From a virus, in IMG/VR virus record IMGVR_UViG_3300033996_001430, positions 1 to 64,000 of that record: a stretch of DNA of 64,000 nucleotides. The stretch is one strand, 5' to 3'. Each line of letters opens with the position of its first letter. Positions within the stretch are counted from its first letter, which is position 1. The notes under the pieces are model-generated. The model made no database searches, was not told the origin of the DNA, and saw only the letters and a program-made list of their open reading frames with translations. Of the stretch, positions 11,250 to 53,416 are shown one piece after another. The translations under genes and the position numbers were made by a program.

Positions 11250-11306
11250 ATTATATAAATATATGTATAAATAAAAAATCCTCCATGTTAGTGGAGGATC
11301 TTTATA

Positions 11307-11399
11307 TTGTCAGGACAGGATTCGAACCTGTAACGTCTCAAACAAATTATGAGCTCTTGAGGTCAACGTCCCTAGCATCTACCGTTCCGCCACCTGACT
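11307..11399 (-). tRNA. tRNA-like RNA/pseudo-tRNA, long variable arm, anticodon unassignable
   Basis: Acceptor (A)GTCAGG/CCTGAC(A), D-arm TGGCGGAACGGTAGATGC, T-arm CAGGTTCGAATCCTG; anticodon stem pairs poorly. Confidence 0.6.
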
Positions 11400-11416
11400 A
11401 TTTTGATTTAAATTTT

Positions 11417-15322: not shown

Positions 15323-15930
15323 ATCGTATTAACCTTAATCATATTATAAAATATATCAGCAATTTCATCAAAACTACTAACATTTTTTGATCTAATTGTG
15401 TCCTTTGTTTGTGAGATTAATCTTTCAAAATGGTTCAATGGAATATCTTTATACATTGATAAAGTTTTTCTATTTGGAACATTTATAAAACCTAACTTAA
15501 CAAATTCTCTTACTTTTCTATTGGCGAATTCATCCGCAATAATTTCAATTTTTTTCATTGCAATTGCAGCTTCTTTAACATCTGTTTCATCCAAATAAAA
15601 TTCATACATCTTTTCATCACCATATTTTTTATATTGGTACTGATGAGCAATCTCATGGAATATTATAAATAAAAAATCAGGTAATTGTTGTTTAAAAATT
15701 ACCTCATTAAATAAAACACCATTATGTACGGCTAACCCTAAAGCCGGATATTTAAACGTCGCAACTTCAATTTTTTTACAGTTTGAATTCTTTATAAATG
15801 ATTCAATATTATCAATAAAACCTTCAGTTTCAGGATATGTTTCCATTACTTGTATTAAGAATTGTTCAATACCTTGAGTTTCTTCCTTTAATATTTTTTT
15901 TATGGTTTCTTGCAGTATATTAGTTACCAT
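15319..15930 (-). CDS. Leader-bearing zincin-like (HExxH) protein
   Basis: IFHEIAHQYQ and a downstream E (EIIADEFA). Confidence 0.6.
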   Translation of the reverse strand: MVTNILQETIKKILKEETQGIEQFLIQVMETYPETEGFIDNIESFIKNSNCKKIEVATFKYPALGLAVHNGVLFNEVIFKQQLPDFLFIIFHEIAHQYQYKKYGDEKMYEFYLDETDVKEAAIAMKKIEIIADEFANRKVREFVKLGFINVPNRKTLSMYKDIPLNHFERLISQTKDTIRSKNVSSFDEIADIFYNMIKVNTI

Positions 15931-16405
15931 TATAATACCTCCCTTCTAAATCTATTTCCCTCACCTCAAGACCTGAGTTATCCTCAAACCATCTTTTAAA
16001 TATAGGAACCCATTTATCATTAAATAAATTATTTAAGTCATTTATAACCCAATTACATATAAATAATACATATAAATTATCATAACCATCCCATTCACCA
16101 AGATAAGCATATCCTTCTAAATCATCTATTTCAAAGTGATATGATCCATATACTCTAACCTCCTCATCATAAAAATCAAATAACTCAGGACCCCAATTAT
16201 AATCAGGGTAATAGTTTTCAGTAAGGTATTGATATATAAATCCATTAAGATCTTCTTCATTAAGATTTAGTATCTTTATTAACCTATTCATTCCACCAAC
16301 GGCCTTTGACGTTTTTTTAATACCATCAGTATTGATCATATCAAACAAACTATCTTGTATTGATTCTTCGTTTAATACTTTTCTTATAGATTCTTTTAAA
16401 TTCAT
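15920..16405 (-). CDS. Leader-bearing hypothetical protein
   Basis: MNLKESIRKVLNEE. Confidence 0.75.
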   Translation of the reverse strand: MNLKESIRKVLNEESIQDSLFDMINTDGIKKTSKAVGGMNRLIKILNLNEEDLNGFIYQYLTENYYPDYNWGPELFDFYDEEVRVYGSYHFEIDDLEGYAYLGEWDGYDNLYVLFICNWVINDLNNLFNDKWVPIFKRWFEDNSGLEVREIDLEGRYYNGN

Positions 16406-22022: not shown

Positions 22023-22613
22023 TTATAACAATCCGTCTTTTATTATGTTTTCTTTTGGTATGTGTGGTATTTTATTTGATAAAACTAAAACTTCTTCTTC
22101 ATCCCTAAATCTATTTTCGTCTAATCCAATATAATCTATGACATTATTTATATCAAATAAAACATCATCATTATTTACATTAAATTTAAACACAATATAA
22201 TATTTATATCTTCTTTTTGATGTTTTCAATAAAACTGATTTTATTCCCTTTAATGATTTTGAACAAGCATAATATTTTTGATTTTCCAAAACATCAAACC
22301 CATTTTTTAAAACCTTTTCATACAAAGTTTTGCTTTTAGTTTGAAATACTCTATATAAAACACCTTCATATTTTAATTCTTGTGGTATATTTCCTTTAAA
22401 ATAATTTATAAAAATATCAATGTTTTCAACACTGTCCAATATAGTTCCACCATCTAAATGATAAAGTAATTTATCCTTAAAAATATTTTTGTTTTCGTTT
22501 AAGAACTCCTTAAAATTCTTAACTTTATCAATCATTTGTCTTATTTCTTTGCTCATAATTTTATCTTTAGTTTCTTCCCTTAATATTCTTTGTATGTTTT
22601 CAAATAAATTCAT
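22023..22613 (-). CDS. Double-leader ADP-ribosyltransferase-like (R-S-E clade) protein
   Basis: VLYRVF, YACSKS, DEEEVLV. Confidence 0.55.
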   Translation of the reverse strand: MNLFENIQRILREETKDKIMSKEIRQMIDKVKNFKEFLNENKNIFKDKLLYHLDGGTILDSVENIDIFINYFKGNIPQELKYEGVLYRVFQTKSKTLYEKVLKNGFDVLENQKYYACSKSLKGIKSVLLKTSKRRYKYYIVFKFNVNNDDVLFDINNVIDYIGLDENRFRDEEEVLVLSNKIPHIPKENIIKDGLL

Positions 22614-22617
22614 ATTT

Positions 22618-23262
22618 TTAAAATTCAATAGTAATTGTGTTAGGAAGTTTACTTAAACGATTAAAATGCTCCTCACAACTTTTACGATTATTGTCATTGT
22701 CGTCGTATCTGTCATCAATGGTCATAACAATAATATCCACACCTTTGAAGGTATTTCGTAATTTCTTTTGAATAAATGATTCGTACTTATCCATAGTATA
22801 TTTTATTTTAGTTACAATTGCAACCAAATAAAGTTTATTTCTACCTACGGTAACTGAAACAAAACAAGGTTTATAATTTGACCTACTTAAATATTCACCA
22901 CTCACTCCATCAATATATTCAGCAATAAATTCAATTTTTTTTAGGTCTGATGGTTTAACATCTTTATCTTCAGATTCATTTATATATTCATCACAACTTA
23001 ATTGTGCGTTTTCAAAGTAATCCAAAAACTCCTCAAAATATCTTTCTCTTATTAAATGATGCAGATCAATTGCAATATTATCATCCTCTAAATTGTTATT
23101 ATTTACAAAGTTTTCTACCACCCAATTAGTTATCTCCCTGAAGTATATATAAAACTTATCTTCATCGTAATCACAAGGTGTTACTTCATGGTAAACCTCA
23201 TCAATAAGATCATCAATTTGTTTCAGTCTTCTAAGTAAAAATGGATTAAAACGGTCTTTCAT
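22618..23262 (-). CDS. Two-module protein with N-terminal 'RR' module
   Basis: LLRRLKQID...TPCDY; internal INES junction. Confidence 0.7.
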   Translation of the reverse strand: MKDRFNPFLLRRLKQIDDLIDEVYHEVTPCDYDEDKFYIYFREITNWVVENFVNNNNLEDDNIAIDLHHLIRERYFEEFLDYFENAQLSCDEYINESEDKDVKPSDLKKIEFIAEYIDGVSGEYLSRSNYKPCFVSVTVGRNKLYLVAIVTKIKYTMDKYESFIQKKLRNTFKGVDIIVMTIDDRYDDNDNNRKSCEEHFNRLSKLPNTITIEF

Positions 23263-41039: not shown

Positions 41040-41093
41040 TACACTTGGTAAATCAGAATACTGACACCATAAATCATCAGTGTGTACCTAAAA

Positions 41094-42146
41094 TTAATTT
41101 GATAACGGGAAATATATTTTTGGGTGTGATTGATAATTTTCTAAAACAATATCATCCAAAGTATATTCTGAAATATCATTTACTGCCCTTTCAGATAATC
41201 TAACATTCGGTAATGGATATGACTCCCTTGTTAATTGTTCTTTAACACCATCTATATGATTTAAGTAGATATGACAATCACCTAAACTACAAATAACCTC
41301 ATCAGGAACCATATTGACTTGTTTTGCCAACATCATAAGTAACAAAGAATATGAGCTGACGTTATACGGCCATCCAAGTGCCGAATCGACACTGCGTTGG
41401 ACCCACATTAAAGAGATTGCTCTGGTTGGGATATTATGTTTATCCATATATTCCATTGTTTTAGGTTCTTTGTAATGAACTGACACCCAGTTATCTAATT
41501 TTTTCATCAACTCATATCTTTCCTCCAAACTCAACTCTCTTGTATAACATTGAAATCCATAATGACAAGGTGGAAGCACCATCGTGTCCAGTTCTCCAAT
41601 ATTATAAGCATTAACCATCAATCGTCTTGAGTCTGGGTTTGTTTTAAGGTCACGGATTAGGTTTGCGATTTGGTCAATTCCGTACTCAATCCTTCTTACA
41701 CCTGCCTCTTTACTCTTATCTTCAACTACATCCCAACCTGTATGCCAACTTCTCCATTGCTTACCATACACAGGACCTAAATCACCCCACTTTCTAGCAA
41801 ACTCATCATCTGTTTTGATATGTTCAATAAAATCTTCTTTACTCTTTGGCCATCTTACTTCATCACTATCAACATATCTCTTATAAGCATCACCATCCCA
41901 AATATGACAATCATTATCAACAAGGTATTTGATGTTGGTATCACCTCTTAAAAACCATAGTAATTCAGTTACCATAGTTTTCCAAGCCATCTTCTTGGTT
42001 GTAAGAAGTGGAAATCCATCTTTCATATTATGACGAATCTGTCTACCGAATACAGATAATGTTCCTCCGTTTCTAGTTTCTTTTTTTACTCCGTTATCAA
42101 GAATGTCTTGAAGGAGTGATTGGTATGATTTATCTAGGTTGTTCAT
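41094..42146 (-). CDS. thyA: Thymidylate synthase
   Basis: FPLLTTKK, ELLWFLRG, LGPVYGKQWR, SRR, LPPCH, QRSVD, GDCHIY.NH. Confidence 0.95.
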   Translation of the reverse strand: MNNLDKSYQSLLQDILDNGVKKETRNGGTLSVFGRQIRHNMKDGFPLLTTKKMAWKTMVTELLWFLRGDTNIKYLVDNDCHIWDGDAYKRYVDSDEVRWPKSKEDFIEHIKTDDEFARKWGDLGPVYGKQWRSWHTGWDVVEDKSKEAGVRRIEYGIDQIANLIRDLKTNPDSRRLMVNAYNIGELDTMVLPPCHYGFQCYTRELSLEERYELMKKLDNWVSVHYKEPKTMEYMDKHNIPTRAISLMWVQRSVDSALGWPYNVSSYSLLLMMLAKQVNMVPDEVICSLGDCHIYLNHIDGVKEQLTRESYPLPNVRLSERAVNDISEYTLDDIVLENYQSHPKIYFPLSN

Positions 42147-42168
42147 ATTTTTCTATTGTTTATCTAAT

Positions 42169-42483
42169 TTATTCACAACTTTCGGTATTAAATTCAGTTT
42201 CGTCAGGAGTTTCCTCAATCATAGGTTGGTTTTCTAATCTCTCAATTACTATGTTAATTGCTTCAGGATAATGAGTATATCCCTGTCCGAAATTAATTCC
42301 CGTTAGTCCCAATACCTCATTGTTAATGTAATGTCGGTTTTTACCCTTACCTTTTAAAATCTCGTGGTCCATTGAAACATCGTTCCAATCTCTCAATACA
42401 AGTCCAGTACCACTAGGTTCCTTGTAATGTAACCTAATGATATTGTTATGACTAAAGTTCTTAATAAATTCTCCTAGTGTCAT
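42169..42483 (-). CDS. Hypothetical protein
   Basis: ORF track. Confidence 0.6.
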   Translation of the reverse strand: MTLGEFIKNFSHNNIIRLHYKEPSGTGLVLRDWNDVSMDHEILKGKGKNRHYINNEVLGLTGINFGQGYTHYPEAINIVIERLENQPMIEETPDETEFNTESCE

Positions 42484-42497
42484 ATTATTTTATTTAT

Positions 42498-42740
42498 TTA
42501 ATTGATGTCTTCCAATCCATCAATTTTATCTCTCAATGTGTTGATCGTTGAATGGACATATTCATCAAGTTCATGAGATACCTCCAAATACTTTCTTCTC
42601 AGTTCGTGGAACTTTTCATCCTGAACTTCTTTGAATGATGAGTAATGTTTGAAACAATAGTGGAAACCTTCATTCTCCATTCTATAACGAACCATTTCAA
42701 TTTCCTCTAATTGATTTTCTAATCTTTCTAAATCACTCAT
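42498..42740 (-). CDS. Hypothetical protein
   Basis: EGFHYCFKHYSSFKEV.DEKFH. Confidence 0.65.
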   Translation of the reverse strand: MSDLERLENQLEEIEMVRYRMENEGFHYCFKHYSSFKEVQDEKFHELRRKYLEVSHELDEYVHSTINTLRDKIDGLEDIN

Positions 42741-42831
42741 TTCTTTAAAAATATATTTAATATAGATTGTTTTACCACATTAAGATAGTACAAACAGACA
42801 AACAAATAAATCTTTATCTTCTTCATTTGTT

Positions 42832-43242
42832 TTATACGGTGTGTTCTATATGAACTCTCACACAATTCTGAGGCATTCTATTCAAGTGTCTGTAATTGTT
42901 GATGTATCCCATCATATTACCGCTACCTACGGCATTTGCAGAGTGGATCACAACTTCTACTACAGGTTTACCATCCAACCATTGGTTAACCAACCATTTG
43001 GTGCAATCCATACCAGTTTTCTCAGTGATGTTATCGTAATTGATTATGTAGTTTTTCACAACACCGTAGTGCCATTCCGCCATCGCACTATCACCTAAGT
43101 CGTGATCCAACGATATTAATTCAATATTCTCCAACCCAATTGAGTTGATCTTTTGAACGAACTCATCATAAGAACGTACAACGATCCAACTTGGATCCAC
43201 TGGCGTTCTTACATCATCTAAATAAATTCTAACTTTGTCCAT
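42832..43242 (-). CDS. Cyclic-phosphate-processing receiver-domain-like protein
   Basis: IYLDDVRTP, SLDHDLG, KTGMDC..WL, HSAN.VG. Confidence 0.7.
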   Translation of the reverse strand: MDKVRIYLDDVRTPVDPSWIVVRSYDEFVQKINSIGLENIELISLDHDLGDSAMAEWHYGVVKNYIINYDNITEKTGMDCTKWLVNQWLDGKPVVEVVIHSANAVGSGNMMGYINNYRHLNRMPQNCVRVHIEHTV

Positions 43243-43257
43243 ATTACAAATATACTT

Positions 43258-43560
43258 TTATTTTTTTATTAAACCTAATTCTAACCGATATTCTTTAATC
43301 TTAACTCTTGCTTCCTGATATTGATCACCATTATTGGCTTGATGACCTTTTGAAACCGCAAGAGTAATTTCCATTTCATTATCAATAATGTAAGATATTT
43401 TTTCCTGATCCGTTAGTTCACATGGTGTTATTTCATTCTTAATATAAGTTAAGATCAATTGTTTAATGTTAAGAACCTGTTTGTTAGGGTTGGTTTTACC
43501 ATTATAACTCATAACAGAAGAATCGTAGATATACTTACATAGTTGTTGTAGTTTATCCAT
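43258..43560 (-). CDS. Hypothetical protein
   Basis: ORF track. Confidence 0.6.
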   Translation of the reverse strand: MDKLQQLCKYIYDSSVMSYNGKTNPNKQVLNIKQLILTYIKNEITPCELTDQEKISYIIDNEMEITLAVSKGHQANNGDQYQEARVKIKEYRLELGLIKK

Positions 43561-43565
43561 TTCAA

Positions 43566-43826
43566 TTATATTAACTCAAATTCTTTATTTACCAATTCTA
43601 TTTCTTTATTCAATCTTTCAAGTTCTTTGGATATCATTTCTATGATAATCTCCTTGTTATTAAAACTTACATCACCTTTTACCATAAACGGTCCAGGATT
43701 CGTAAACTCAATTTTTACCCCCAACCCACAACCTTTAAGAGCACCTTCTAGTTTGTATTTTTGTCTTTCCAATCTATCAAGATTTTCTTTGATTATTTTT
43801 GCCTGTTCAAATTTTTCTATTTCCAT
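43566..43826 (-). CDS. Hypothetical coiled-coil protein
   Basis: ORF track. Confidence 0.6.
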   Translation of the reverse strand: MEIEKFEQAKIIKENLDRLERQKYKLEGALKGCGLGVKIEFTNPGPFMVKGDVSFNNKEIIIEMISKELERLNKEIELVNKEFELI

Positions 43827-43946
43827 TTTTATATTTTTTACGTAAGTATTCTTCCCAAACTTCTTGTTTTATTCCGTTCACAAAAAACCAACCAAGATTT
43901 AATTCAAACCATTTATTAATCCGATAAAAAGTTTTTTTGATCATAT

Positions 43947-44333
43947 TTAAAAATTTCTTAATTTTTGATAATCTTCTTTGGTTAAAACAATTTCATTTAA
44001 ATCTGAGTTTAAACCTCTAATGGTTTTCCAAGCTTCCTTAACTCTACCCCACAAAGATTTATTCCCATAAGTTTTATAAAACGTTATGTAATAATCGGTA
44101 TCATCATTGAACTTGTCAACAGACATACAGGTACAATTGTCAACACATTTAACAATTACTTCAGATCTTTCATTGTTTTCAACTTTCATCCTATTAATGT
44201 TGTCATTAATTTCCTTTAATTCAATTTCATCCAATATGACTTTTAATCTGATCATGTAGTCATAGGTAGGTTTTTCACCGTATATGTTAATAAGACGATT
44301 GTAAATAAATTGTAAGTGTTCTCTTTTTATCAT
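43947..44333 (-). CDS. Hypothetical protein
   Basis: Starts 3 nt downstream of the repeat-array ORF stop. Confidence 0.6.
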   Translation of the reverse strand: MIKREHLQFIYNRLINIYGEKPTYDYMIRLKVILDEIELKEINDNINRMKVENNERSEVIVKCVDNCTCMSVDKFNDDTDYYITFYKTYGNKSLWGRVKEAWKTIRGLNSDLNEIVLTKEDYQKLRNF

Positions 44334-44336
44334 TTT

Positions 44337-46235
44337 TTATTTCTTTAAATTAATTACACCATTTTCAATAACATCATTAACCATTGATTTTTGCATATAT
44401 TCTGTCCCTAAAGTGTGTTTCACTCCATTTTGGATAATATCATTAAACCTTTCATCACCATCTAACCAATCACCATCTTCAGTGTGTTTCACCCCATTTT
44501 GAATGGTATCTTTAACAGTGTTTTCTCGTGAAAGTTTAAGATCTATGGTGTTTTTCACCCCATTTTGGATTATTTCTTCAACTTGCCAATCAATATATTG
44601 TGTCATTGGGGAAATATTTCTCACCCCATTTTGAATGGTATCTTCAACTCCTGATTGAATCGATTCAGGCAAAAACAGGGTGTTTTTCACCCCATTTTGA
44701 ATGGTATCTTCAACAAGCTTCTTATTTTCAAAAATCTTTGGACTGGTGTTTTTCACCCCATTTTTAATAGCATCTTCAACTTTATTATATTGTGCCCACC
44801 CAATCTCGATGTGTTTCACCCCATTTTGAATGGTATCTTCAACCGCACAATCATTAAAGATGTCACCAATAACGGTGTGTTTAACTCCATTTTGAATGGT
44901 GTCTTTAACAACGCTGCTTCGTCGTAGACAAATATCCCCGATCTCTTTAACCCCATTTTGAATGGTATCTTCAACTGAAGTGACTGTCAGTTTTGACAAT
45001 GGAAAGGCGTACTTCACCCCATTTTGAATGGTATTTTCAACGCTTTTGGGACAATCTGTACTTGAACGATTGGTGCGTTTCACCCCATTTTGAATGGTAT
45101 CTTCAACTGCCAATGGTCTAACCCCTTTATGTAATTCAGTTTCCTTCACCCCATTTTGAATGGTATCTTTAACTCTCAACTTGTTCTTTTGTCCATTTTG
45201 GATGGTTTCTTTCACCCCATTTTGAATGATATCTTCAACATCATATTTACAGTTTCCAACAGAACTGGAGATGTATTTTATCCCATTTTGAATGGCATCT
45301 TCAACCTCAAACGAATCTTCTTCCTCTATCATTCGGGTGTATTTCACCCCATTTTGAATAATATCTCCAACCAGTTCCGGATGAAGATGACCAACCGTAG
45401 ATGTGCGTTTCACCCCATTTTGAATGGTGTCTTCAACTCTTTGGTGTTTCTTCCTGAAGTTCCTTCTGGTGCGTTTCACCCCATTTTGAATGGTGTCTTC
45501 AACTATCTGATGCAATGGATGATGATTTACCTTGATGTGTTTCACCCCATTTTGAATGGTATCTTCAACTCGTGTTGCGTTCTCTTTCCCTATATCTGAG
45601 GTGAGTTTCACCCCATTTTGAATGGTATCTTCAACTGAATCGGGTTGTTCAGAATAGTAAGTAGAGGTGTATCTAACCCCATTTTGAATGGTGTCTTCAA
45701 CTATAATGCTCAATGGTTCCAACGTACGATTGGTGTGTTTTACCCCATTTTGAATGGTATCTTCAACTACACTATTAATACGGATAATCGCTTTATTGGT
45801 GTGTTTCACCCCATTTTGAATGGTATCTTCAACACCCATGCACATCCACGGATTACTTTCTTCGGTGTGTTTCACCCCATTTTGAATGGTATCTTCAACT
45901 CTTTTCTCAGCATTAGCATTTGTTATGCTGGTGTGTCTCACCCCATTTTGAATGGTATCTTCAACCACCTCAGGTTTAAGAAATCTTGACTCAAACCATT
46001 CGGTTATATATTCTTGATTTTCCATAAGATCTAAAGATATTCCCTTAAATAAAGATTTAAATAAATTGTAGTTATACCACAATGTTTTTTCTTTAGTAAA
46101 TTCAACCATCCATTTTAATTCTTCGGTATTAATTAACCAAAAAGATCCATTATGGTTGTATATGTCCATGCCATTTGTGACATCATTAATGATCTCAAAT
46201 AAACATTCTTTTCTTTTTATTTTTTTATAATCCAT
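44337..46235 (-). CDS. 632-aa protein: ~90-aa N-terminal domain plus 25 x VEDTIQNGVK(H/R/N/E/Y)T repeats with unique ~10-aa inserts
   Basis: Uninterrupted ORF across the whole array; same strand as neighbours and tightly packed with them. Confidence 0.8.
   Translation of the reverse strand: MDYKKIKRKECLFEIINDVTNGMDIYNHNGSFWLINTEELKWMVEFTKEKTLWYNYNLFKSLFKGISLDLMENQEYITEWFESRFLKPEVVEDTIQNGVRHTSITNANAEKRVEDTIQNGVKHTEESNPWMCMGVEDTIQNGVKHTNKAIIRINSVVEDTIQNGVKHTNRTLEPLSIIVEDTIQNGVRYTSTYYSEQPDSVEDTIQNGVKLTSDIGKENATRVEDTIQNGVKHIKVNHHPLHQIVEDTIQNGVKRTRRNFRKKHQRVEDTIQNGVKRTSTVGHLHPELVGDIIQNGVKYTRMIEEEDSFEVEDAIQNGIKYISSSVGNCKYDVEDIIQNGVKETIQNGQKNKLRVKDTIQNGVKETELHKGVRPLAVEDTIQNGVKRTNRSSTDCPKSVENTIQNGVKYAFPLSKLTVTSVEDTIQNGVKEIGDICLRRSSVVKDTIQNGVKHTVIGDIFNDCAVEDTIQNGVKHIEIGWAQYNKVEDAIKNGVKNTSPKIFENKKLVEDTIQNGVKNTLFLPESIQSGVEDTIQNGVRNISPMTQYIDWQVEEIIQNGVKNTIDLKLSRENTVKDTIQNGVKHTEDGDWLDGDERFNDIIQNGVKHTLGTEYMQKSMVNDVIENGVINLKK
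44346..45965. CRISPR. CRISPR-like array: 25 x 36-nt repeat and 24 unique spacers (22 of 30 nt, one of 27, one of 33), inside a CDS
   Basis: + consensus GGTGTGTTTCACCCCATTTTGAATGGTATCTTCAAC (e.g. 45864-45899); 66-nt period; internal CCATT/AATGG hairpin; degenerate toward 44346; no cas genes in window. Confidence 0.6.
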
Positions 46236-46292: not shown

Positions 46293-47036
46293 TTATTTGT
46301 ATTTCCAAATAAAACCTTGTGACTTTTTATATCCTTTCCTTAAACAATTATTTATTGCTTTGTAAGATAATTCTAATTCTTTTGAAGCAATTAAAGCATT
46401 CGTCCATTCTTTAATAAATTCATTGTCTAATGAAAATTGTAAAACAGGTTTAGATTTAGCGTGAGGTAATCCGGTTCGTTCTAAATATCTTTTATAATTA
46501 TTATTTTTACCCTTTGCGGATTCACTCATTTTAGTTTTTGTTTCGGAGGTCTTTAATTTACCCTTCCAAAATTCACTCATCTTCTTTTTTGTTTCATCGG
46601 TAATTTTTTTACCAAGAGCTGATTGACTCATTTTCTTTTTTGACTCTTCATTATGTTTCCTACCGTACCAAAATGGTTTTAATGTCCCATTCAAAACTAA
46701 CTCATCATCTTTTGGTACTCTATAAACTTTACCATTTTCACCCATATATTGTCCCAAACCAACAGTTTTAAAACCAACATCAGGAATATGGGCATTCCTG
46801 TTTAATTTATCGGAAATATGTTCAATGATTAACTCTCGTTCATATCTAATACAATCTTCTCTATTAATAAAATCACATTTAATAATAGTTTTAATTAATT
46901 TTTTTTTATCTGTTTTCCAAGACCTCATAGACCCCATATAATAAACATCTTTAGTTGGTTCAACTTTAGATGTTCTACTACCAAAATAAAATTCTTTTGT
47001 TTTCGGTAATTCTAATTTATAAACATAATGATACAT
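46293..47036 (-). CDS. GIY-YIG-like homing endonuclease with NUMOD3/NUMOD1 motifs
   Basis: HYVYK...FYFGSR..YMGS; HNEESKKKMSQS repeats; KPVLQFSLDNEFIKEW...GFIWKY. Confidence 0.8.
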   Translation of the reverse strand: MYHYVYKLELPKTKEFYFGSRTSKVEPTKDVYYMGSMRSWKTDKKKLIKTIIKCDFINREDCIRYERELIIEHISDKLNRNAHIPDVGFKTVGLGQYMGENGKVYRVPKDDELVLNGTLKPFWYGRKHNEESKKKMSQSALGKKITDETKKKMSEFWKGKLKTSETKTKMSESAKGKNNNYKRYLERTGLPHAKSKPVLQFSLDNEFIKEWTNALIASKELELSYKAINNCLRKGYKKSQGFIWKYK

Positions 47037-53140: not shown

Positions 53141-53416
53141 TTACATTATTGATCCTTTAATTTTAAAAACATATTCAATCCATTCTTCAATTATCTCATA
53201 TAAGTCATCTAACATTTCATCATCAATGTTTAACGCTTTACATATTGGTTGAACAAAATTTTTATATTCCAAATATATAACCTTTTCTTTTATGTTAAAT
53301 CTAAAATAAATCTCACCTTCTTTATGATAACAAAGATTTTTTGGACTACACACTAATTCACCATAATGTGTATCTAAAAAATTTAAAATAACAAATATTT
53401 TATTTTCTCCTATCAT
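53141..53416 (-). CDS. Hypothetical protein, possibly related to the N-terminal domain of 44337..46235
   Basis: Similar size and pattern (...KEKVIYLEY...IIEEWIEYVF vs ...KEKTLWYNY...YITEWFESRF). Confidence 0.6.
   Translation of the reverse strand: MIGENKIFVILNFLDTHYGELVCSPKNLCYHKEGEIYFRFNIKEKVIYLEYKNFVQPICKALNIDDEMLDDLYEIIEEWIEYVFKIKGSIM

Follow-up and report, generated by a model that had tools for sequence, protein, structure and literature searches.

A translated array of 36-bp repeats and unrelated 30-bp inserts in lake-water jumbo phages, and its possible kinship with type VI-B CRISPR arrays

The 64,000-nucleotide stretch analysed here (the window; positions 1 to 64,000 of IMG/VR virus record IMGVR_UViG_3300033996_001430) carries at positions 44337-46235 a real protein-coding gene whose reading frame is kept open through an array of 36-nt repeats and 30-nt inserts. 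In the product, an N-terminal domain is followed by units of 22 residues, each comprising a constant VEDTIQNGVKxT segment (12 residues, the 36-nt repeat) and ~10 residues that are unrelated from unit to unit (the 30-nt insert). The reading that we favor, with a probability of roughly 0.6, is that of a translated cassette-repeat protein whose units phages reshuffle among themselves through recombination within the 36-bp segments; the array would possibly descend from one resembling the type VI-B CRISPR arrays, without being CRISPR-active now. Related phages differ by the loss, gain and replacement of entire modules, and at least one exchange has its breakpoint in a 36-bp repeat.

The reading frame and its product

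A repeat search located 25 copies of the repeat, spaced 66 nt apart except for one interval of 69 nt, one of 63 nt and one 42+24 pair, the last arising from an insert that carries a partial repeat copy. The initial annotation of this DNA, made from the sequence by eye and without database searches, had given the same consensus, copy number and period; only the 42+24 pair is additional. It had also described the inserts as mutually unrelated, and their pairwise identities within the array indeed match the shuffle distribution. The decay of the repeats away from the N-terminal domain, likewise described there, was measured as a fall from 35-36 of 36 positions identical to the consensus beside the domain to 21-34 at the far end. 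At the DNA level the insert lengths are all multiples of 3, with 33 nt in 41 of 286 measured inserts (~15%).

The coding frame contains no stop in 518 array codons, compared to 10, 26, 29, 36 and 55 stops in the other five frames. The chance of finding no stop in the 238 insert codons is ~4e-9 given the inserts' own composition and 2e-10 given the composition of the strand, which makes the open frame less likely to be fortuitous than the 1e-5 originally estimated. Inserts shared between phages differ mainly by synonymous changes, with a ratio of nonsynonymous to synonymous polymorphism (pN/pS) of 0.26 over 24 clusters. In a codon-model test, 56-62% of the inserts scored best in the gene's own frame; the corresponding values are 78% for true in-frame gene fragments and 29% for random stop-filtered capture. 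The degenerate repeats keep the amino acid motif (V/I)x(D/E)xIxNG(V/I)K while their bases have changed, and in most relatives the first repeat forms the end of the N-terminal domain (ITKWVEDTIINGVK). Together, these four observations show selection on the protein and, with the stop-free frame, they support the proposal of a hypervariable repeat protein translated from the array. Gradual divergence by point mutation, which by the initial annotation would mark an ordinary solenoid repeat protein and speak against its reading, is in part seen: the shared inserts diverge in this way, under purifying selection.

AlphaFold predicts the N-terminal domain as a helix, three to four strands and two further helices, with a predicted local distance difference test score (pLDDT) of 91. 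The domain has no significant structural match (best Z score of 4.8), no Pfam match and no PDB profile match. For the repeat region the model shows β-rich 22-residue units with pLDDT of 60-80, placing IQNGVK at a turn in the first units, and a fold search with the whole model returned nothing significant, the only matches being weak ones to β-solenoids. In composition the inserts are hydrophilic, with an excess of R, H, S, C, Q and P and little F, I or V, as exposed loops would be. Probably the product forms a scaffold of the solenoid type that shows many variable loops and binds or decoys a target of the host or of a competitor.

A viral protein with ~25 regular 22-residue repeats is known from a giant virus, the FNIP/FGxxFN leucine-rich repeat (LRR) protein Crov588 (PDB accession number 6NYR; PMC9525666). 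A phmmer search of the PDB with the window protein yields, for Crov588, a summed E value of 3.9e-19, although single stretches are weak (E values of 0.01-0.4), and aligns ENVLPxxLTH with EDTIQNGVKH; the phage repeats are likewise predicted to be β-rich and solenoid-like. In Crov588, however, the whole 22-residue unit is conserved around an LxxLxFGxxFN core, whereas its counterpart in the phage protein is the hypervariable 10-mer. Assignment to the FNIP/FGxxFN class was rejected on this ground. Dodecin (PF07311, a 64-position β-α-β-β profile) was also rejected: the match is confined to profile positions 15-35, its score is a sum over the repeats, and none of the stretches passes by itself.

Exchange of units and constancy of the repeat

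The sister phage locus L001 is 99.88% identical to window positions 41082-45107 over 4026 nt, and the identity ends inside the repeat at 45072-45107, which places a recombination junction in that repeat. Beyond the breakpoint, in the 5' half of the gene, L001 has a divergent N-terminal domain and different units. A metagenome contig with the same type of N-terminal domain (L080) has 10 units collinear with those of the window; private units are scattered between the shared ones in both arrays, and one unit is swapped at the same position. Other array pairs differ in the N-proximal part (P0011/P0013 and P0008/P0010) or by internal swaps (L018/L021/L022). Loci with N-terminal domains of only 40-50% identity have some inserts in common whose DNA matches at 100%, and the 33-nt EDGDWLDGDER insert is 100% identical across several divergent loci. 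Family-wide, the fraction of shared inserts is 35% in the first, N-proximal fifth of the arrays versus 70% in the last fifth. Contigs that cover most of the window array in runs from 2018, 2020, 2023 and 2024 do not differ from it; they include pieces that join the N-terminal domain to the first repeat or unit, and their depth equals that of the flanks. For a polarized gain of units at the N-domain end, which the initial annotation suggested looking for, the greater frequency of private units there speaks in favor; the scattered differences between the window and L080, a polarity opposite to that of the F. columnare array and the parts unchanged from 2018 to 2024 speak against it.

The 36-bp constant segments probably provide the homology for unit-level recombination between co-infecting phages, a process that would at once shuffle the cassettes and homogenise the repeats. 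The codons of the repeat are nearly constant across divergent phages (27 distinct loci), rare ones included: ACC, GGG and GTG account for 11-13% of the codons of their families in window genes and for 61-91% in the repeat. Protein constraint alone is insufficient to explain this. Unit-level recombination homogenising the sole homologous segments would explain the constancy, and it would also be explained if the repeat descended from a particular nucleic-acid sequence or if such a sequence were selected for. In lake metagenomes (runs X1, X4, X9 and X14) the depth of the repeat (window 44370-45970) is 10-25 times that of the flanking genes, and many contigs link the repeat to inserts not present in the window array, from which it follows that each lake sample contains numerous different arrays sharing this repeat.

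Modular repeats of ~22 residues with variable positions, subject to unit-level recombination, are also found in the LRR locus of Flavobacterium psychrophilum (PMC10392669). Variation in that locus is confined to a few positions within a conserved repeat, whereas the phage array combines whole unrelated 10-residue cassettes with a segment constant in DNA, and the exchange is between phage genomes.

Homing-endonuclease-like genes lie near the array gene, namely a NUMOD3 protein in the window (46293-47036) and, in L001 (4463-4765), an open reading frame that looks to be of the GIY-YIG type by eye. The identity of L080 to the window is mosaic, at 78-99% in neighbouring blocks. With these genes nearby, the region looks like a recombination hotspot.

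Table 1 Features of the array gene in the window.
Feature	Position	Strand	Remarks
Gene P0001, 632 aa: N-terminal domain and ~25 units of 22 aa	44337..46235	-	Sole stop-free frame; at least 619 homologues of the same architecture
N-terminal domain, ~88 aa, alpha-beta(3-4)-alpha-alpha; family-defining	45966..46235	-	Predicted by AlphaFold, pLDDT 91; invariant residues
13 N-proximal units: near-perfect repeats, inserts mostly lineage-private	45108..45965	-	Unrelated sequence in their place in L001
Repeat copy with recombination breakpoint relative to sister phage L001	45072..45107	.	End of L001 identity inside the repeat
11 C-terminal units: more degenerate repeats; include the family-wide conserved inserts EIGWAQYNK, SPMTQYIDWQ, EDGDWLDGDER and LGTEYMQKSM	44337..45071	-	
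Insert IQNGQKNKLR with partial copy of the repeat motif	45174..45203	-	Copy at 45180-45219, 68%

Comparison with type VI-B arrays and the origin of the inserts

The initial annotation had noted a likeness to the repeats that accompany Cas13b. When the + strand (antisense) repeat is compared with the type VI-B repeat of Flavobacterium columnare, taken from PMC5395568 and from genomes, 25 of 36 positions agree in register, distributed as 19 of 21 in the 3' half and 6 of 15 in the 5' half. Of the 12 wobble positions, 10 are matched, and a count of 25 is not attained in any of 200,000 shuffles. Agreement with the Flavobacterium sp. J27 repeat is also 25 of 36, and a Bergeyella-type repeat agrees with the phage repeat at 21 of 36 positions; real VI-B repeats agree with each other at 24-33. 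Four real VI-B arrays have periods of 65-67 nt, compared to 66 nt in the phage. On the strength of the match, the shuffle test and the equal period, we regard the resemblance to the F. columnare repeat as probably due to a genuine relationship instead of chance.

The likeness to the VI-B arrays of F. columnare, F. covae and Flavobacterium sp. J27 extends to the combination of a 36-nt repeat with 30-nt unrelated spacers, to the gradient of private units toward one end and to the probable host phylum, the phage being from lake water and having 31% G+C. The phage array differs in being protein-coding without stops, with insert lengths all multiples of 3, and in that its first repeat belongs to a conserved domain of the protein. 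The folding of the repeat also differs. Each of three real VI-B repeats folds into a single hairpin with GTTG/CAAC as its closing stem and with an upper stem (-9.8 to -11.2 kcal/mol), whereas the fold of the phage repeat consists of two small, unrelated hairpins (-6.8 kcal/mol) and is devoid of the 5' arm and the closing stem. Its CCATT/AATGG hairpin shows no paired changes, positions 14-15 being invariant while 25-26 vary. The likeness noted initially is borne out in part, for the geometry of the array and for half of the repeat.

When 185,579 species, represented by one genome each, were scanned for the 3' half of the repeat, the arrays identified were confined to F. columnare, F. covae and Flavobacterium sp. 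J27, and no CRISPR array had a phage-type repeat. Further Cas13b loci were examined for additional real repeats, and no array was within reach. Rfam in permissive mode assigned no CRISPR repeat family to the window array. Neither Cas1 (PF01867) nor Cas13b had a match in five phage records (G000-G004, of which two relatives are 100% and 98% complete); the earlier statement that the window contains no cas gene is correct. In F. columnare the VI-B array, which is without cas1, is filled in trans by the type II-C Cas1-Cas2, and its leader lies beside the GTTG end of the repeat (PMC8092290); the variable end of the phage array adjoins the opposite, CAAC end. Kinship with the Flavobacterium VI-B arrays is suggested by the 36+30 geometry together with the 3' half of the antisense repeat, and its simplest explanation would be descent from such an array. 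No sign of current CRISPR-type activity was seen in the window array.

No copy of an insert was found outside the arrays in the 74.8-kb record to which the window belongs and 40 related loci, in a complete 308-kb relative searched with the inserts of its own array, in 400 Flavobacteriales genomes, in JGI metagenome contigs (two inserts) or in IMG/VR (three inserts); 400 Flavobacterium species gave only non-orthologous, low-complexity matches. The protospacer search suggested by the initial annotation has accordingly yielded none in any collection searched, a weak negative because the collections are samples and the host is not identified. Copying of inserts from the phage's own genome was rejected for the complete relative and for the window record. 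The matches of one insert in several Flavobacterium genomes were discarded as non-orthologous and of low complexity. Duplication followed by divergence was rejected as the source of inserts, because identities within arrays are random apart from one near-identical pair. Insert 21 of a relative (L006) agrees at 25 of 26 positions with window 22064-22089, antisense to the gene at 22023..22628; the segment is AT-rich and of low complexity, and the match may be due to chance or mark a true source. The other matches of this insert are not in homologous genes.

Alternative explanations, gene family and genomic setting

Several points weigh against a cassette-repeat protein shuffled by recombination. 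Recombination only moves cassettes and leaves the source of the unrelated 30-bp inserts unexplained. Within arrays, duplicates do not grade into diverged copies, which argues against duplication and divergence. Private inserts are commoner near the N-terminal domain, and one-ended addition would yield the same gradient. Neither chance nor protein constraint readily accounts for the VI-B repeat match, and the predicted fold of the repeat region has moderate pLDDT and no significant structural match. The origin of unrelated inserts is better explained if units were written by CRISPR-type spacer integration, for example by a host type II-C Cas1-Cas2 acting in trans, with 66 bp, or 22 codons, added per event; selection would keep the stop-free inserts, and old inserts would turn into ordinary protein sequence. 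The 66-nt period, as in the four real VI-B arrays, the repeat match (25 of 36, with 19 of 21 in the 3' half), the mutually unrelated inserts with no duplication continuum, the excess of private inserts toward the N-domain end and the documented filling of VI-B arrays in trans (PMC8092290) all agree with such integration. Although the main alternative, it is an unlikely account, given that no off-array copy of an insert was found, that the variable end is at the CAAC end instead of the GTTG end at which the F. columnare leader lies, that private units are scattered through both arrays of the window/L080 pair and that the inserts are coding-like well beyond the prediction for random capture; moreover, ~15% of the measured inserts are 33 nt long, the Cas1 family has no match in the five phage records, two of them complete, and the covered parts of the array are unchanged over six years. 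The lack of protospacers in the collections searched, the scattered differences between sisters, the opposite polarity and the array pieces unchanged from 2018 to 2024 likewise leave the originally proposed growth by host adaptation machinery unsupported for this array. We hold it as a tentative possibility that a CRISPR-type integrase, most likely a host II-C Cas1-Cas2 in trans, wrote the family's 30-bp inserts, of which the window array would be an old, protein-selected product.

An RNA role for the repeat against a host Cas13b, to which the open frame would be secondary, appears very improbable. Transcripts of the + strand could serve as crRNA-like decoys or guides, or the mRNA, with 25 copies of a sequence that is the complement of the VI-B repeat's 3' half, could act as a sponge of host pre-crRNA. 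Phage-borne mimics of CRISPR repeats and mini-arrays act as RNA anti-CRISPRs; these elements are non-coding and keep the repeat structure that is bound by the Cas protein. The window array resembles them in being a CRISPR-repeat-like sequence on a phage without cas genes, and the 19 of 21 positions matching the 3' half of the F. columnare/J27 repeat, the conserved synonymous sites and the retained rare codons would suit such a role. The array differs from them in that it is coding and the VI-B repeat structure is not kept. Because the repeat cannot form the closing and upper stems of real VI-B repeats, the opposite-strand guide or decoy RNA put forward in the initial annotation is unsupported; the unpaired changes in the CCATT/AATGG hairpin, the lack of a CRISPR array with a phage-type repeat among the scanned species, the clear selection on the protein and the lack of an Rfam CRISPR repeat family here argue in the same direction. 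Similarly remote is a multi-core peptide precursor, in which the N-terminal domain would be peptide-binding and resemble PqqD or the recognition element (RRE) of ribosomally synthesized and post-translationally modified peptides (RiPPs), the constant 12-mers would provide sites for recognition or cleavage, and release of the 10-mers would yield a library of peptides. The language-model neighbours of the N-terminal domain are all MftB/PqqD chaperone clusters, but with a score of only 0.79, which is within the range of shuffled proteins; many of its low-Z structural rows, indeed most, are winged-helix domains, the fold class of RREs, but it has no Pfam, PDB profile or significant structural match. 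A gene for a ClpP-type protease lies 4.4 kb downstream of the array gene, but no RiPP-type modifying enzyme is found among the neighbour genes, and the repeat region is predicted to be folded β structure.

The family to which the cassette-repeat protein belongs has at least 619 metagenomic homologues with the same architecture. A profile search with the N-terminal domain yielded 411 clusters at 50% identity; the domain is N-terminal in all of the 150 listed, in proteins of 96-611 residues. The residues D24, S31, W33, W42, E45, T47, L52, W53, N55, F59, W80 and E82 are invariant, and the window protein fits the family definition of an N-terminal domain with these residues followed by 22-residue modules. 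No family member was found among 50,697 deposited phage genomes; against deposited phages, megablast gave no match and tblastn only weak periodic matches to tape-measure proteins. Pfam and PHROG offered no annotation of value for the protein, and a full-text literature search found no description of such genes. Two candidate array-less paralogues of the N-terminal domain, at window 53141-53416 and 15920-16405, aligned in hhalign with E values of only 0.038 and 0.22, so that their kinship is unsupported.

In some relatives two family genes stand side by side, inverted in L026/L030 (L026 3060-3700) and in tandem in L006 (1202-2055), and these arrays have inserts in common with other phages. The complete 308-kb relative contains a second in-frame mini-array (L081, G003:C1:4100-4400) of four units with a period of 66. 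Its repeat is different (peptide VEEHYKMEVT) and it lies behind a small domain ending in KEIWKFFESYF, as a sister array family.

The window is part of a 74.8-kb IMG/VR record that CheckV estimates to be 26% complete. Relatives with the same gene are 295-309 kb long, one of them with terminal repeats, which indicates a jumbo phage of ~300 kb. The window stretch is present in at least 24 lake-water metagenome runs from 2018 to 2024. The genes neighbouring the array gene encode a thymidylate synthase, ClpP, a cREC receiver domain, a glycosyltransferase, a methyltransferase, a nucleotidyltransferase and the NUMOD3 homing-endonuclease-like protein. The receiver domain is of the cyclic-phosphate-processing kind (cREC_REC, E value of 1.5e-21) and belongs to a 136-residue protein at window 42832-43242, which lies 1.1 kb downstream from the array gene and is conserved in L001. 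At window 11306-11400 ARAGORN identified a tRNA-Asn (GTT) of 95 nt, ~20 nt over the usual length, which may hold an intron or an extended arm.

The gene family is carried by hundreds of uncultured lake jumbo phages. Even on a cautious reading it represents an unusual route to a variable protein, in which segments of 36 bp that are constant in DNA alternate with 30-bp cassettes traded as units, and the protein could be a natural scaffold for the display of ~25 different peptides. If the link to CRISPR proved to be mechanistic, CRISPR-type integration would write protein sequence, with spacer acquisition generating peptide cassettes, and this would be a new principle for CRISPR biology and for protein diversification.

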